Origin: a virus
Lineage: Duplodnaviria > Heunggongvirae > Uroviricota > Caudoviricetes
DNA: 52,688 nt
Virus record (IMG/VR): IMGVR_UViG_2531839667_000013
Reading direction: 5' to 3' (one strand)
The notes below the pieces were generated by a model that was not told where the DNA came from, did not search any database, and saw only the letters and a list, made by a program, of their open reading frames with translations. Numbering within the stretch: position 1 is the stretch's first letter; every line of letters starts with the position of its first letter. Shown piece by piece: positions 4,389-50,830 of this stretch. The translations under genes were made by a program, and so were the position numbers.

Positions 4389-5086
4389 CGCGATAACGGT
4401 CAAAAATCATGGCGCTGACACTTTTGTGCCACTGTAGATGACTGTACCTAAGTTCAGGGGAGAAGAACACGTCCGGTGGGATGGTCGGGCCAGATTTAAA
4501 GGGCAGGTCATGGCTCCAGCCAGTACGCTGGCAATGGAGGCTGCCTGGCTGGAAATTGATATGGGAACCACGCCACTCAGGGATTTACTGCCGGTCCAGA
4601 GAATAAATTCCTGTTACGGTTACACCACTGTGATCTTGCAAGTGCAGGAAAGTAGGTCTACACGGTAACGCGAGTGCGTGTAACTTTTGATGTTATTTCC
4701 GTAGAAACACCGGACAAATTTTCGCTGGCAGGTCATGCTGAAGGTATAAATCTGCAGATTATGGACAATTACGGATATCCGGCAAGAGCCGGAAAAAGCA
4801 TGCCGCCTCTAATTCTCAGTGGAAGATGGACTTGATTATACTCATTGCATTGTCAGAAATAGTTATCCATTAAAGGCTGGCTATTCCAAACAGGATGTTG
4901 ATTACAAAAATGTAATCAACATGTAAGGTTTATACTCTTCAATATGCGTATAATTTTCCTTATTTTGTTAACTTTAAATAACAAGCTATGCACGAGGTAA
5001 AGTCGGATAAGTTTATCTGGATGTAATATATATTATTTGTAGTGTTTATAACTTTATTTCATGATAACCAATAAAAGGAGTTTTTT

Positions 5087-5845
5087 ATGAGGAACATAAT
5101 GGCAGGTTTTTTAATATTCCTGTCTTCTGCTGCTTATGCTGATATCAATCTGTATGGTCCTGGTGGCCCGCATACAGCCTTGCTTGATGCAGCCAAACTT
5201 TATGCCGAAAAAACAGGTATTATAGTGAACGTTCATTACGGCCCACAGAACAAATGGAATGAAGATGCCAAAAAAAATGCAGATATCTTGTTTGGCGCAT
5301 CAGAACAATCTGCTCTGGCTATCATTCGGGACCATAAAGACAGCTTCAGTGAAAAAGATATTCAGCCTCTTTATCTGCGAAAAAGTATTTTACTGGTAAA
5401 GAAAGGTAATCCTAAAAATATCCGGAGTATTGACGACCTGACCAGACCCGGGATTGGCGTAATTGTTAATGATGGTGGTGGTACCAGTAATACATCAGGC
5501 ACTGGCGTCTGGGAAGATATTGCCGGACGTAAAGGGAATATAGAAACTGTCGCCGCAATCCGAAAAAATATTATTTTATATGCGCCCAATAGCGGAACTG
5601 CACGTAAGGCTCTTGAGAATCAGCCTGAAGCAGATGTCTGGATAACCTGGGCTGACTGGGCAGCCAGTAATCCAGAAATTGGTGATGTCGTGGAAATAGC
5701 GCCAGACTACGTGATATGGCGTGATATGAACATTACAGTACGTCAGGATGCAAATGATGAAACCCGTCGATTTGCAGAATGGCTACAAACCGATGAAGCG
5801 GCGCCTGCATTCAAAAAATATGGCTGGACCAGGAAAGGCACTTGA
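5087..5845 (+). CDS. Orphan periplasmic substrate-binding protein (ModA/PBP type-2-like) with signal peptide; cargo gene
   Basis: AAGGAG RBS; N-terminal signal peptide MRNIMAGFLIFLSSAAYA; embedded in AT-rich DNA (4700-5086) and followed by a terminator; no permease or ATPase partner nearby. Confidence 0.7.
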   Translation: MRNIMAGFLIFLSSAAYADINLYGPGGPHTALLDAAKLYAEKTGIIVNVHYGPQNKWNEDAKKNADILFGASEQSALAIIRDHKDSFSEKDIQPLYLRKSILLVKKGNPKNIRSIDDLTRPGIGVIVNDGGGTSNTSGTGVWEDIAGRKGNIETVAAIRKNIILYAPNSGTARKALENQPEADVWITWADWAASNPEIGDVVEIAPDYVIWRDMNITVRQDANDETRRFAEWLQTDEAAPAFKKYGWTRKGT

Positions 5846-5850
5846 CATCC

Positions 5851-5880
5851 TCCACGTCCTTCAGAACGTGGATTCTTTTT
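5851..5880 (+). terminator. Rho-independent terminator after the binding-protein gene
   Basis: Stem TCCACGT/ACGTGGA with loop, followed by TTCTTTTT. Confidence 0.6.
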
Positions 5881-6183
5881 CCGGATGCCGCGCCAGCGGC
5901 ATGTAGGGGCAGCTCACAAAACGGAAAAAATTGTACGCTAAGCCTCGCCAGGTGAACTGAATTCATTCCGATATGGGAATTCCCATATCGGACGAAAACG
6001 GCTTGCTGTAACGGCAGAGTTAAGTAGAATTGCTGCGGGTGCTTGAGGCTATCTGCCTCGGGCATGAACACCAACGGCAGATAGATAAAAGCCCCACCCG
6101 ACTATAAATCGAAGTGAGGCCCCTATATGCTCGTCACATATAGATTGCCTCTTACGGACCGAAAGGTCAAGGAGAAGCAGGCT

Positions 6184-6339
6184 ATGAAGCAGCAAAAGGC
6201 GATGTTAATCGCCCTGATCGTCATCTGTTTAACCGTCATAGTGACGGCACTGGTAACGAGGAAAGACCTCTGCGAGGTACGAATCCGAACCGGCCAGACG
6301 GAGGTCGCTGTCTTCACAGCTTACGAATCTGAGGAGTAA
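6184..6339 (+). CDS. hokD: Hok/Gef-family type I toxin (51 aa); in-frame upstream extension from 6127
   Basis: MKQQKAMLIALIVICLTVIVTALVTRKDLCEVRIRTGQTEVAVFTAYESEE near-identical to recalled HokD/RelF; fold-back region and terminator downstream. Confidence 0.85.
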   Translation: MKQQKAMLIALIVICLTVIVTALVTRKDLCEVRIRTGQTEVAVFTAYESEE

Positions 6340-9716: not shown

Positions 9717-10766
9717 ATGCTTAATACTGTAAAAATATCCAGTTGTGAGTTAATCAACGCCGACTGCCTGGAATTTATGCGGTCGTTACCCGAAAATTCT
9801 GTTGACCTGATAGTCACGGACCCGCCGTACTTCAAAGTGAAACCCGAGGGCTGGGATAACCAGTGGGCGGGTGATGAAGATTACCTGAAGTGGCTGGACC
9901 AGTGTCTTGCGCAGTTCTGGCGGGTGCTGAAACCTGCCGGAAGTCTTTACCTGTTCTGTGGCCATCGTCTGGCATCTGACACCGAAATCATGATGCGTGA
10001 GCGGTTTAACGTGCTGAACCATATCATCTGGGCAAAGCCGTCCGGACGCTGGAACGGGTGCAACAAGGAAAGCCTGCGGGCGTATTTCCCCGCCACAGAG
10101 CGCATTCTGTTCGCAGAGCATTATCAGGGGCCGTATCGTCCGAAAGATGCCGGGTATGAGGCGAAGGGTAGGGCACTGAAACAGCATGTGATGGCCCCGC
10201 TGATTGCTTACTTTCGTGATGCGCGCGCTGTCCTGGGGATAACGGCAAAACAGATTGCAGATGCCACAGGAAAGAAAAACATGGTGTCGCACTGGTTCAG
10301 TGCCGGTCAGTGGCAGCTGCCGAACGAAAGCGATTATCTGAAATTACAGGCACTGTTTGCCCGGGTGGCAGAAGAGAAGCATCAGCGGGGTGAACTGGAA
10401 AAGCCCCACCACCAGCTGGTGGATACGTATGCCTCTCTGAACCGACAGTATGCGGAGCTGCAGAGTGAATATAAGCATCTGCGGCGGTATTTTGGTGTGA
10501 CGGCGCAGGTGCCGTACACGGATGTGTGGACACATAAACCGGTGCAGTTCTATCCCGGGAAACATCCGTGCGAAAAACCGGCAGAAATGCTGCAGCAGAT
10601 AATCAGCGCAAGCAGTCGTCCGGGTGACCTGGTTGCAGATTTTTTTATGGGCTCAGGTTCAACGGTAAAAGCGGCACTGGCGCTCGGGCGTCGTGCAATT
10701 GGCGTTGAGCTGGAGACTGAACGTTTTGAGCAGACAGTCAGGGAAGTTCAGGATTTAATCGTTTGA
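9717..10766 (+). CDS. DNA N6-adenine methyltransferase (beta class)
   Basis: Motif IV DPPY (VTDPPYF) precedes motif I FFMGSGST near the C-terminus. Confidence 0.85.
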   Translation: MLNTVKISSCELINADCLEFMRSLPENSVDLIVTDPPYFKVKPEGWDNQWAGDEDYLKWLDQCLAQFWRVLKPAGSLYLFCGHRLASDTEIMMRERFNVLNHIIWAKPSGRWNGCNKESLRAYFPATERILFAEHYQGPYRPKDAGYEAKGRALKQHVMAPLIAYFRDARAVLGITAKQIADATGKKNMVSHWFSAGQWQLPNESDYLKLQALFARVAEEKHQRGELEKPHHQLVDTYASLNRQYAELQSEYKHLRRYFGVTAQVPYTDVWTHKPVQFYPGKHPCEKPAEMLQQIISASSRPGDLVADFFMGSGSTVKAALALGRRAIGVELETERFEQTVREVQDLIV

Positions 10767-10815: not shown

Positions 10816-10891
10816 GGCCCTTTAGCTCAGTGGTGAGAGCGAGCGACTCATAATCGCCAGGTCGCTGGTTCAAATCCAGCAAGGGCCACCA
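10816..10891 (+). tRNA. tRNA-Ile (anticodon CAU, ileX/ileZ-like, lysidine type)
   Basis: Cloverleaf: acceptor GGCCCTT/AAGGGCC, anticodon loop CTCATAA, T-loop GGTTCAAATCC, 3' ACCA; close to recalled E. coli ileX. Confidence 0.85.
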
Positions 10892-10991: not shown

Positions 10992-11068
10992 GCGTTGTTA
11001 GCTCAGCCGGACAGAGCAATTGCCTTCTAAGCAATCGGTCACTGGTTCGACTCCACTACAACGCGCCA
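10992..11068 (+). tRNA. tRNA-Arg (anticodon UCU)
   Basis: Acceptor GCGTTGT/ACAACGC, anticodon loop CTTCTAA, T-loop GGTTCGACTCC, 3' GCCA. Confidence 0.85.
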
Positions 11069-49483: not shown

Positions 49484-50164
49484 ATGGATTCTATAGATAA
49501 AAGGTTTCTTGATTTTATTCGATCTAAGAAAAATAATATAGTATTGGACGATAAGAAGGATGATTTCAAAAAAGACGATGGCTCTAGTTCGAAAATGGCA
49601 GATTATTTGTTATTTAATAACGATGTTATTTTAGAGCAAAAATTACTTACAAATGACAGAACTGATTTAATAAATGAAAAAATTAATGAGCTAGCTAAGA
49701 CTGATGAATGGCTTAAAAGAAGTTGGTTCGGTAGGGTTCATATTGAGGAATTGATTCAAAAACACCCCGACTCAGATGCTTTCAGAAAAAAGATAATGGA
49801 TTATGCTTATAGAAATATAAAAGATCTTGTAGCAACCTCCAATAGACAGATTAGAGTAACAAAGGAATCTTTAAATATTCCTAGAGCAGTCGGTGGACTT
49901 GTTATTCTTAATGAATCGATAATGCCTTATGAATCTGAAAATGTAATGAAAGAACTTAATTTTCTTGTTGAAAATCCACATTATGAACATGTTGATTTTG
50001 TTCTCTATATATCAGAACTACGTAGATCAACACATAATATGATTGATATGTCAGCAATTATAAAAAGCAGCTCTCCAAGATATGAGTTTGTAAACTGGTA
50101 TATAAAAAACGTTTTCTCATTCGATTTCGCTTCATTTTTTAATCACCCTATACAATTTTTATAG
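49484..50164 (+). CDS. Hypothetical protein (226 aa); possible nuclease-like motif
   Basis: ATG with AGGAAAG RBS; ADYLLFNNDVILEQK could be read as a D-x11-ExK motif, but this is weak. Confidence 0.4.
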   Translation: MDSIDKRFLDFIRSKKNNIVLDDKKDDFKKDDGSSSKMADYLLFNNDVILEQKLLTNDRTDLINEKINELAKTDEWLKRSWFGRVHIEELIQKHPDSDAFRKKIMDYAYRNIKDLVATSNRQIRVTKESLNIPRAVGGLVILNESIMPYESENVMKELNFLVENPHYEHVDFVLYISELRRSTHNMIDMSAIIKSSSPRYEFVNWYIKNVFSFDFASFFNHPIQFL

Positions 50165-50248
50165 TAGGGTGGGAGTTTGTTAAAATGCATTGGCTTTATG
50201 GAGTTATCATTCAGATAGGAGTTGCTTGAGAAAATCTCTTTCTTGAAA

Positions 50249-50830
50249 CTACTGCGTTTTGCCTTGGCAATTAATTTTGTTCTCTTTAGTTTTAGCTTTT
50301 TTGTCCTTCAAGTAATAAGTTTTCATGAAGGTTAAGCGATCACCATTAAACATATAGTCTGGATTAATAAAATAATAGTTCTGTATCATGGTCTCAGCAA
50401 TAAATTTCTTGTCAGCAAGTTCTTTCATCCCTTTGAAATATGTCGTTCTTGATATTTTTACAATCTCTTGATCAACAATATCGAATGACATTAATATCGT
50501 ATCTGTATCTTTATTGTCTCTAATAGCAAGATACAGTATCTTAAATACTTTCTTACCTGATGAGGATAAACCCTCAATAGCTGATACGCCATCCACATAA
50601 AGCTTCACGAACTGTGTCTTGTCTACTTCCATTGACTGAAAGAAACCACCATGCCCAACCTGTTCTCCTGTATTTTCATTTACTACGGCTAAGCGGTCTT
50701 TTCCTGTTGTGATACGTCTGATACCTGTTTTTGTATGTATATTTGTATCATTAAGGAATGGGTTTTTTACATGGCGAGGTAGACCTCTTCTTGATTTCTT
50801 TACTTCCGTTTGTATCTTATTTTCTATCAT
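50249..50830 (-). CDS. Putative winged-helix DNA-binding protein, RepL-like (replication/maintenance or regulator)
   Basis: NENTGEQ...FVKLYVDGVSAIEGLSSSGKKVFKILYLAIRDNKDTDTILMSFDIVDQEI...ISRTTYFKGMKELADKKFI resembles the RepL family pattern as recalled. Confidence 0.3.
   Translation of the reverse strand: MIENKIQTEVKKSRRGLPRHVKNPFLNDTNIHTKTGIRRITTGKDRLAVVNENTGEQVGHGGFFQSMEVDKTQFVKLYVDGVSAIEGLSSSGKKVFKILYLAIRDNKDTDTILMSFDIVDQEIVKISRTTYFKGMKELADKKFIAETMIQNYYFINPDYMFNGDRLTFMKTYYLKDKKAKTKENKINCQGKTQ

Follow-up and report, generated by a model that had tools for sequence, protein, structure and literature searches.

The prophage gene paa (adfO) of Escherichia coli: a mobile single-gene cassette for a predicted periplasmic binding protein of the AcfC/PEB3 family

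The window, i.e. the whole 52,688-base stretch of caudoviral DNA that was analysed, contains an intact open reading frame of 252 codons (Table 1), which an earlier note had recognised. It is the already described virulence-associated E. coli gene paa (synonym adfO), and the finding is in this respect ordinary. The RefSeq gene "paa: AcfC family adhesin Paa" matches with 100% nucleotide identity over 1181 nt in NZ_CP090611 and two other genomes. The "Paa/adherence factor AdfO" gene of the O157 PPompW (ompW) prophage shares 99.2% of its nucleotides (dN 0.002). A paa match is present in 822 of 5426 complete E. coli genomes (about 15%), and the best match is at least 99% identical in 563 of the 825 matching records. 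In strain EDL933 the same gene, encoding the porcine attaching-and-effacing associated protein, is Z2053 on OI-57/CP-933O, likewise a lambdoid prophage with a hok-type gene (ckf in the literature) directly downstream. What had been implied to be an uncharacterised orphan binding protein is thus named and experimentally studied. The alleles on plasmids start with MRTAIAG or MRSTIAG; therefore, the conserved start is Met1, not Met5. Comparisons with diverged alleles from plasmids and E. albertii yielded dN/dS values of 0.05-0.12, which point to strong purifying selection on paa.

The gene is flanked by the replication genes on one side and the sok/hokD (ckf)-nin region on the other. Downstream of it come sok (6037-6186; Rfam, 103.9 bits) and hokD (HOK_GEF, 1.1e-23); the hokD-type gene takes the ckf position. 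Annotated relatives carry paa and sok/hokD in the same order. In the Qin prophage of strain K-12, relB-relE are located directly upstream of hokD, as paa is upstream of sok/hokD in the window, and the equivalence of the two positions proposed in the earlier note holds. The backbone of the prophage in the window is mosaic, and outside roughly 1-9.4 kb the window differs from the prophages of DCE7 and O157. Effector genes of the NleB family, NleH and an NleF-like protein are also present in the window. The fimbrial remnant on the left shares 84% of its nucleotides with the "fimbrial protein" gene of E. coli MP1 (L011, 9001-9480), which is intact and belongs to a pap-like operon; weaker blastn matches are annotated as papH. 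The translation of the remnant shows stops and frame changes; the RefSeq annotation in DCE7 records a frameshift, an internal stop and a missing N-terminus. A stitched translation gave no Pfam match. The phosphoglycerate transport genes pgtP-pgtCBA are found beside the intact PapH-like operon of MP1. A connection to paa was considered and is read as a coincidence, because the MP1 locus lacks paa.

Table 1. Features at the paa locus, in coordinates of the window.
Feature	Position	Strand	Description
Degraded PapH-like fimbrial minor-subunit gene remnant	4421..4885	+	immediately left of the paa cassette; outside the functional unit
Mobile paa cassette, ~1 kb	4886..5908	+	stretch common to diverged paa alleles of IncF plasmids
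Perfect inverted repeat, 28 bp (ATGTTGATTACA-AAAA-TGTAATCAACAT)	4895..4922		left cassette edge; candidate operator
Candidate -10 hexamer TATAAT of an inferred paa promoter	4949..4954	+	kept in the prophage and both plasmid alleles
Shine-Dalgarno sequence AAGGAG	5075..5080	+	6 nt 5' of the ATG; read directly from the sequence
paa (adfO) coding sequence	5087..5845	+	252 aa plus stop; AcfC/PEB3-family periplasmic binding protein
Predicted Sec signal peptide codons	5087..5140	+	residues 1-18, cut after AYA; sequence features
Predicted oxyanion-binding loop codons	5489..5506	+	N135-T136-S137-G138-T139-G140, aligned to PEB3 N137-G142
Terminator-like hairpin (5851-5872) plus T-tract	5851..5882	+	pattern scan; TTCTTTTTCC after the hairpin

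The extent of the cassette was derived from blastn alignments with the plasmids pSTEC388_3 (4893-5908, 89%) and pCFS3246-1 (4883-5908, 86%). On the left side, the PapH-like homology ends at 4885; on the right side, homology to Qin is regained only at 6170. An AT-rich cassette had been claimed for positions 4700-5880. The AT-richness was confirmed, with a GC content of 26% in the 200 bp upstream of paa, while the coordinates need correction, 4700-4885 being the tail of the fimbrial remnant. The cassette has a GC content of 41% versus a window mean of 49%, and the paa coding sequence has 44%. GC3 is 35% in paa versus 55% in the adjacent DUF968 gene.

A ribosome-binding site and a terminator belonging to the gene had also been proposed, and candidates for both are present. 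The prophage and the two plasmid alleles share the Shine-Dalgarno region AAAAGGAGTT; across the alignment of five alleles, AGGAGTT does not vary. The hairpin, a candidate terminator by pattern match, has a predicted RNA folding energy of -13.9 kcal/mol (z=-2.79 versus shuffles) and falls within the stretch conserved with the plasmid alleles. No good -35 element was found for the putative promoter, and a consensus scan gave no full sigma-70 match inside the cassette. The two arms of the inverted repeat, 12 nt each and 100% complementary, are separated by 4 nt. Its 22-nt core is unique in the window and had no match in 100 shuffles. Both plasmid alleles retain the core ATTACAAAAATGTAAT; the chromosomal allele of E. 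albertii does not. The half-sites TTGAT/ATCAA resemble those of FNR. An FNR site was rejected, because the spacer in the palindrome has 12 nt and the FNR consensus spacer has 4 nt. The ribosome-binding site, the terminator-like hairpin, the deviant GC content, relBE at the equivalent position of Qin and the presence of the unit also on IncF plasmids identify paa as a single-gene cargo cassette ("moron") in a lambdoid, effector-carrying prophage.

Paa is a soluble protein of ~26 kDa. The signal peptide mentioned in the earlier note is recognisable by its n-, h- and AXA-regions. The N-terminus MRNIMAGFLIFLSSAAYA/DINLY, with the predicted cut at the slash, contains one basic residue, a hydrophobic core of 13 residues (mean Kyte-Doolittle 1.66) and A-Y-A before the cut. 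Residues 5-15 form a helix of low pLDDT in the AF2 model. Alignments with the crystallised PEB3 chains 2hxw and 3fj7 begin at Paa residue 19 (chain residues 2 and 1, respectively). Export of Paa via a Sec signal peptide is therefore probable. The protein has no cysteine and, for this reason, is not a lipoprotein.

The only confident Pfam domain is SBP_bac_11 (residues 20-247, E=1.6e-34). In phmmer searches, Paa matched PEB3 from Campylobacter jejuni (E=4.1e-82) and AcfC from Vibrio cholerae (E=1.5e-81). NCBIfam holds no HMM that names Paa; sulfate and molybdate models matched below threshold only, with 22.7 bits against a cut-off of 288 for sulfate and 18.6 against 62.5 for modA. Overall, the molybdate and sulfate binding-protein models yielded 18-23 bits, with cut-offs of 62-470. 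An AF2 model built on a 41-sequence alignment reached a pLDDT of 91.6 and a pTM of 0.84; a single-sequence model (pLDDT 39.7) was discarded. Foldseek aligned the AF2 model to 3fj7, 4jb7, 2hxw and 3fir with a TMt of 0.94-0.97 and an rmsd of 1.2-1.9 Å. The best matches were PEB3 3fj7 (0.96) and AcfC 4jb7 (0.97), and ModA/Sbp reached ~0.7. The model predicts for Paa the two-lobed class II binding-protein fold of PEB3 and AcfC. Profile search and structure prediction, both suggested in the earlier note, hence point to the PEB3/AcfC family, and homology to a non-binding family, which had been considered there, was not found. The description as a type-2 periplasmic binding protein, ModA/sulfate-like, was right, because the ModA and sulfate-binding folds are the next best after PEB3 and AcfC.

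The predicted ligand site is a loop with the sequence N-T-S-G-T-G. T136, S137, G138, T139 and G140 are invariant and N135 is nearly invariant in the 41-sequence alignment. The loop is also retained in a distant clade linked to ECF sigma factors. The family motifs YGPGGPH, GNP and WITWxDW occur in Paa; they are invariant or nearly so in the 41 sequences and kept in the distant clade. T136/S137 align with T138/S139 in the ligand site of PEB3, and a T138A/S139A variant of PEB3 has reportedly lost ligand stabilisation (work of Min and colleagues from 2009). PEB3 was deposited in complex with L-phospholactate (3fj7); the entries 3fjg and 3fjm are presumably complexes with 3-phosphoglycerate and phosphate. 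AcfC was crystallised with D-aspartate, and the purified protein binds sulfated glycans and mucin in ELISA (heparin sulfate, chondroitin sulfate, mucin). The earlier statement that the ligand cannot be inferred was too pessimistic in view of these data and of the conserved ligand-site residues in Paa. Position 133 of Paa is a threonine aligned to K135 of PEB3; the ligand preference may therefore differ.

PEB3 (2hxw, 3fj7, 3fjg, 3fjm, 3fir) is 52-53% identical to Paa (TMt 0.94-0.96, rmsd 1.5-1.9 Å). Both proteins have about 250 aa, Sec export (predicted for Paa), an identical SNTSGTGVWED loop and no adjacent ABC system. PEB3 is N-glycosylated in Campylobacter, at a sequon that we take to be DFNVS, whereas the aligned DSFSE of Paa is no sequon and E. 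coli lacks a Campylobacter-type N-glycosylation pathway. The PEB3 gene is chromosomal and BumSR-regulated, while paa resides on mobile elements. AcfC (VC_0841; 4jb7) is 52% identical in the structural alignment (TMt 0.97, rmsd 1.2 Å). It resembles Paa in being a colonisation factor whose gene resides on an element gained by horizontal transfer, the Vibrio pathogenicity island. The ABC importer proteins ModA, Sbp and CysP share with Paa the SBP_bac_11 clan and the class II fold at a TM of ~0.7. They bind the anion between the two lobes, as predicted for Paa. The sequence identity amounts to 11-19% only, the HMM scores of Paa are far under the cut-offs, and paa has no linked permease or ATPase genes.

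The absence of nearby permease and ATPase genes had been noted before and extends over the whole window, which has no LSGG[QEK] ABC signature in six frames. In RefSeq, a prophage stretch that is nearly identical is annotated without any transporter gene inside the phage. Paa is full length in phmmer alignments with PEB3 (residues 11-248) and AcfC (residues 16-248). Together with the apparent purifying selection and the lack of ABC genes nearby, this led to the rejection of a truncated fragment of a transporter operon, a possibility raised in the earlier note. On the plasmids, paa is a lone gene with repA or STa as neighbour. Homologues in Edwardsiella, Enterobacter and Francisella are monocistronic, and ABC systems nearby have their own binding protein. 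Among 80 genome loci, an ORF with Walker A and LSGGQ motifs was found within 5 kb at two and adjacent at none. The absence of a linked ABC system is a trait of the whole AcfC/PEB3/Paa family examined. Close relatives (at least 50% identity) have no conserved neighbours, and their neighbourhoods are heterogeneous. Signal-transduction genes adjoin some of the loci. In V. cholerae, acfB, which encodes a chemoreceptor, and acfC form one operon, with acfC starting 5 bp downstream of acfB. Of the 80 loci, 15 contain a gene for an ECF sigma factor; at seven of them, the sigma factor, a putative anti-sigma factor and the binding protein are encoded as a cluster on the same strand, with Lipoprotein_15 in six of the seven. 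E. coli paa has no linked transducer.

Since the orphan status is family-wide and some loci lie beside signal-transduction genes, the favoured interpretation, which is held to be rather probable, regards Paa as a periplasmic oxyanion-ligand receptor acting via a host-encoded partner. The two lobes would shut on a small oxyanion held by the invariant loop with T136/S137. By analogy with PEB3, the ligand may be an organophosphate, for example 3-phosphoglycerate or phosphoenolpyruvate; by analogy with AcfC, for which this has been proposed, it may be a sulfated compound. The liganded protein would probably dock on a membrane partner of the host, either a signal transducer or a secondary carrier; a host-encoded partner is assumed because the prophage and the other family loci have no linked permease. 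The phenotypes in adherence, attaching-effacing lesions and protein production and secretion would be the downstream result of docking, and the prophage would provide the lysogen with a gut-niche colonisation trait. Several observations stand against this mechanism: Paa carries the label "adhesin" in the field, PEB3 has been presented as part of a transporter for metabolites that contain phosphate, K135 is replaced by T133, and the signalling links come only from V. cholerae and a clade that is 43-49% identical to Paa.

The main rival, a direct adhesin, follows the nomenclature of RefSeq and the literature. Paa would be a true surface protein that binds sulfated glycans or mucin of the host in an initial attachment before attaching-effacing lesions form. 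This is considered unlikely. In the literature, paa/adfO of the OI-57/CP-933O prophage is an adherence factor that also serves as a virulence marker, and adfO is reported always to be accompanied by ckf. Expression of the gene was observed in EDL933 and was higher in bovine rectal contents. An EHEC adfO mutant is reported to adhere less to HeLa cells and to make and secrete less of several proteins. Reduced adherence is likewise reported for paa mutants, and fewer attaching-effacing lesions are among the reported phenotypes. Batisson and colleagues are said to have located Paa on the bacterial surface by immunogold labelling in 2003 and to have achieved inhibition with anti-Paa antibody. The glycan and mucin binding of AcfC in ELISA agrees with an adhesin. 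However, Paa has no surface anchor, as judged from the lack of lipobox or cysteine, beta-barrel, autotransporter and chaperone-usher features, and the whole protein is occupied by the binding-protein fold. The residues of the small-metabolite pocket are invariant, and the family extends to free-living bacteria of marine and soil habitats. In cell fractionation, AcfC is found in the periplasm. An acfC mutant lost chemotaxis to mucin and kept adhesion; the deletion left adhesion to Caco-2 and HT-29MTX cells unchanged, and the authors' conclusion was that AcfC does not act as an adhesin for intestinal cell lines. Paa/AdfO mutants differ here in that they are reported to adhere less.

Nutrient scavenging in the gut, with Paa as binding protein of an unlinked host transporter, is improbable. 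An ABC importer or a secondary carrier might serve as transporter, for example an organophosphate:phosphate antiporter for 3-phosphoglycerate or phosphoenolpyruvate. The fold is that of the ABC binding proteins ModA and Sbp. Furthermore, 3-phosphoglycerate reportedly boosted the growth of wild-type C. jejuni, not of peb3 mutants, again in the 2009 work of Min and colleagues. The scores against the molybdate and sulfate models, the missing ABC genes in the window and at the plasmid alleles, and the 80 loci without an adjacent permease or ATPase speak against such a function, and a mobile single gene would require a compatible permease in each new host. Scavenging via an ABC importer, as proposed in the earlier note, is disfavoured, because no examined family member adjoins an ABC system. 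The receptor decoy also proposed there is supported by nothing, and a decoy or other phage-benefit protein (e.g. for a superinfection block) or a decaying non-functional passenger is highly implausible: the moron position beside a toxin-antitoxin locus and the adjoining pseudogene remnant would fit, but the reading frame is intact, dN/dS suggests purifying selection, most matching genomes have a near-identical copy, paa occurs on plasmids and chromosomes without phage context, and mutant phenotypes in host colonisation are reported.

paa, which was described two decades ago, is listed among the virulence markers of EHEC, EPEC and ETEC, and adfO/ckf of OI-57 are used in molecular risk typing. 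The invariant pocket, the lack of linked ABC systems in the family and the repeated linkage to a chemoreceptor or to ECF sigma/anti-sigma factors argue for an experimental re-test of the "adhesin" annotation. A more far-reaching and tentative proposal extends the receptor interpretation to the family: AcfC, PEB3 and Paa could be neither adhesins nor transporter parts, but stand-alone proteins that sense ligands in the periplasm and dock on signal transducers. In V. cholerae the transducer would be a chemoreceptor; in a clade of environmental and enterobacterial relatives, ECF anti-sigma factors would take this part. If this is true, the mobile paa would feed a new gut-metabolite input, an organophosphate or sulfated compound, into the host control of adherence and secretion, and the label "adhesin" would describe an indirect effect.

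The gene flagged by the earlier note in the interval 4700-5880 is the known paa (synonym adfO), encoding the 252-aa protein Paa. A megablast search with 4700-5880 as query found paa in 822 of 5426 complete E. coli genomes. In 563 of the 825 matching records, the best match reached at least 99% identity; three matches showed 100%, and all matches listed carried the annotation 'paa: AcfC family adhesin Paa'. Residues 20-247 match SBP_bac_11 (Pfam, E=1.6e-34), and the whole mature protein aligns with two solved relatives, PEB3 of Campylobacter jejuni (E=4e-82) and AcfC of Vibrio cholerae (E=1.5e-81). An AlphaFold2 model (41 homologues as input, pLDDT 91.6) overlays PEB3/AcfC with an rmsd of 1.2-1.9 A (TMt 0.94-0.97). 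The next-best folds, ModA and sulfate-binding proteins, reach a TM of ~0.7 at 11-19% identity. Scores for the ModA/Sbp/CysP ABC binding-protein families fall far under the cut-offs, and no transporter genes are linked to paa. Sequence, fold, motifs and orphan arrangement place Paa in the AcfC/PEB3/Paa family; export and ligand binding are predicted. The type-2 periplasmic-binding fold seen by eye was thus correct. The ModA/WtpA or sulfate guess hit the fold neighbourhood and missed the family, which is separate and has solved structures of its own. Likewise, the description as an orphan cargo gene for a binding protein holds, but the gene is not new: it had been named before, is widespread and has been studied experimentally.

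The Paa N-terminus, MRNIMAGFLIFLSSAAYA followed by DINLY, resembles a Sec signal peptide in its layout, and the first aligned residue is 19 for the crystallised PEB3 chains 2hxw and 3fj7. Paa contains no cysteine and is therefore not a lipoprotein. Plasmid-allele proteins open with MRTAIAG or MRSTIAG, so that the conserved start is Met1 (5087), not Met5. The GC content is 26% in the 200 bp 5' of paa and 44% in the coding sequence, against a window average of 49%; GC3 is 35%, versus 55% in the adjoining DUF968 gene. The terminator-like hairpin has a fold energy of -13.9 kcal/mol (z=-2.8 versus shuffles). Across all 52,688 bases of the window, no frame contains the ABC-transporter signature LSGG[QEK]. 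Signal peptide, AT-rich cassette with its own ribosome-binding site and terminator, and lack of a nearby permease or ATPase gene all agree with the earlier description.

Features of the prophage and of related loci
Feature	Position	Strand	Remark
Degraded PapH-like fimbrial minor-subunit gene	4421-4885 (RefSeq pseudogene span ~4438-4926)	+	directly left of paa
Perfect inverted repeat, 28 bp	4895-4922	.	ATGTTGATTACA AAAA TGTAATCAACAT; left edge of paa cassette
TATAAT	4949-4954	+	kept in plasmid alleles
Shine-Dalgarno AAGGAG	5075-5080	+	ATG begins 6 nt on (sequence reading)
paa ORF	5087..5845	+	252 aa (ORF call)
Terminator-like hairpin	5851-5872	+	7 pairs, then TTCTTTTTCC (pattern scan)
sok element, full	6037-6186		Rfam, 103.9 bits
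hokD (hok-type gene)	6187-6339		HOK_GEF match
DNA adenine methyltransferase gene	9717-10766		within DCE7-absent segment
tRNA-Met	10816-10891		within DCE7-absent segment
tRNA-Arg(tct)	10992-11068		within DCE7-absent segment
NleB-family arginine glycosyltransferase, NleH-like kinase, NleF-like protein	39829-42986		type III effector cargo, prophage right end
H-NS/StpA paralogue	48216-48620	-	in block 43983-50830
Same-strand ECF clusters	L053, L054, L055, L060, L061, L069, L074		genome loci; sigma factor nearby at 8 more

Comparison with diverged plasmid alleles (blastn, 85-89% identity) delimits a conserved unit at 4883/4893-5908. On the left, PapH-like homology stops at 4885, with the junction to the cassette at 4885/4886; 4700-4885 of the flagged interval belongs to the fimbrial remnant. 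On the right, homology to prophage Qin restarts only at 6170. The remnant shares 84% identity with an intact gene of E. coli MP1 that belongs to a pap-like chaperone-usher operon; this operon adjoins pgtP-pgtCBA. This suggests that the cassette arrived in the prophage along with part of a fimbrial locus. On IncF plasmids, too, the unit consists of one gene standing alone, next to repA, toxin-antitoxin genes or an IS1-flanked STa enterotoxin gene. The cassette fits the definition of a prophage moron. The inverted repeat at its left edge occurs once in the window and never in shuffles; its core and TATAAT are both kept in IncF plasmid alleles, and the core is not conserved in the chromosomal allele of E. 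albertii. A consensus scan found no full sigma-70 consensus for paa. These signals would fit a regulated promoter, with the repeat as candidate operator. An FNR site was rejected: the half-sites are similar, the spacing is wrong. A spacer-less 26-nt perfect palindrome, TCCGATATGGGAATTCCCATATCGGA, lies at 5967-5992, in the stretch 5909-6036 between the cassette and sok.

As the earlier note had it, paa stands where K-12 Qin carries relB-relE directly 5' of hokD; here it lies 5' of sok/hokD. Qin is homologous to the sok/hok locus from 6170 onward only and therefore lacks the sok leader, relBE being in its place. An in-frame extended ORF of 70 aa, beginning at 6127, runs over hokD. By position, this hok-type gene corresponds to ckf of the OI-57 literature.

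The type III effector cargo (NleB-family protein of 326 aa, 697 bits; NleH-like kinase of 234 aa against a 304-position profile, possibly truncated) identifies the host as an attaching-effacing pathogen. Beyond it, the block 43983-50830, which also holds DUF4756, DUF6387, a RepL-like protein and a 437-aa ORF, may be a separate integrated element. The segment 9364-11288 is missing from the otherwise similar prophage of E. coli DCE7 (NZ_CP090611). Past the right end of the paa prophage in DCE7, a region (L012, 36454-37737) begins with ydfJ, lacking its N-terminus, followed by ydfI, ydfZ, rspR, ydfG and dcp; in K-12 this is the Qin attachment region. The paa prophage of O157 and O121 sits in ompW; paa cargo thus appears to ride prophages at different integration sites.

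Of two PEB3 sequences in the protein alignments to Paa, one has E at position 135 and the other K, which fixes the numbering: PEB3 T138/S139 are Paa T136/S137. In 2009, Min et al. reportedly found that 3-phosphoglycerate and phosphoenolpyruvate no longer stabilise PEB3 carrying the double mutation T138A/S139A. Among 41 family members, T136/S137 and every position of the S-N-T-S-G-T-G loop vary little or not at all; the same holds for YGPGGPH, GNP, WITWxDW and R212/N215. Judged by this conservation of PEB3-equivalent residues, Paa is predicted, with near certainty, to have kept the ability to close around a small ligand that bears an oxyanion.

The Edwardsiella, Enterobacter and Francisella homologues lie in monocistronic units, and nearby ABC systems come with a binding protein of their own. 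Among 80 genome loci from across bacteria, an ORF with Walker A and LSGGQ motifs lay within 5 kb at only two, adjacent at neither. Locus comparison found no conserved neighbour gene common to close Paa relatives. In V. cholerae, acfC follows the dCache-type chemoreceptor gene acfB after 5 bp. An ECF sigma factor gene is present at 15 of the 80 loci, within a clade that has 43-49% identity to Paa and retains the family motifs (Endozoicomonas, Citrobacter, Serratia, Neisseriaceae, Aureimonas and others). Seven of these 15 are same-strand clusters of sigma factor, putative anti-sigma and binding protein, six with a Lipoprotein_15 repeat protein. The anti-sigma assignment is based on a zf-HC2 match for one of three protein clusters; the other two have no Pfam match. 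Such clusters may point to a sensory role of the family. Other members have SLAC1/TehA anion channels or sulfite-oxidase-like molybdoenzymes close by.

According to published accounts, Paa was discovered in an EPEC strain of porcine origin and plays a part in attaching-effacing lesions. In EDL933, adfO (z2053) is carried on OI-57/prophage CP-933O, described as constantly paired with ckf (z2054), a phage-associated killer gene. In this strain, paa is reported to be transcribed, and more strongly so in bovine rectal contents. An adfO mutant reportedly adheres less to HeLa cells and makes and secretes several proteins in smaller amounts. The favoured reading is that Paa would act as a ligand receptor, signalling or delivering via a host-encoded membrane partner, because of the neighbourhood evidence, the AcfC chemotaxis phenotype and this pleiotropic adfO phenotype. 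Conventionally, Paa is seen as a direct adhesin; this main rival draws on the adherence phenotypes and on the reported binding of sulfated glycosaminoglycans and mucin by purified AcfC. However, Paa has no surface-anchoring feature in its sequence, the family also occurs in free-living bacteria, and AcfC is described as periplasmic, required for chemotaxis to mucin but not for adhesion to Caco-2/HT-29MTX cells. Delivery of ligand to an unlinked transporter is possible. A decoy role, raised in the earlier note, or a non-functional gene is unlikely, since dN/dS (0.07-0.12 versus plasmid alleles, 0.05 versus the E. albertii allele) indicates strong purifying selection and no decaying passenger. 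The mechanistic question is whether 'adhesin' is apt for a periplasmic binding protein with relatives tied to signal transducers.
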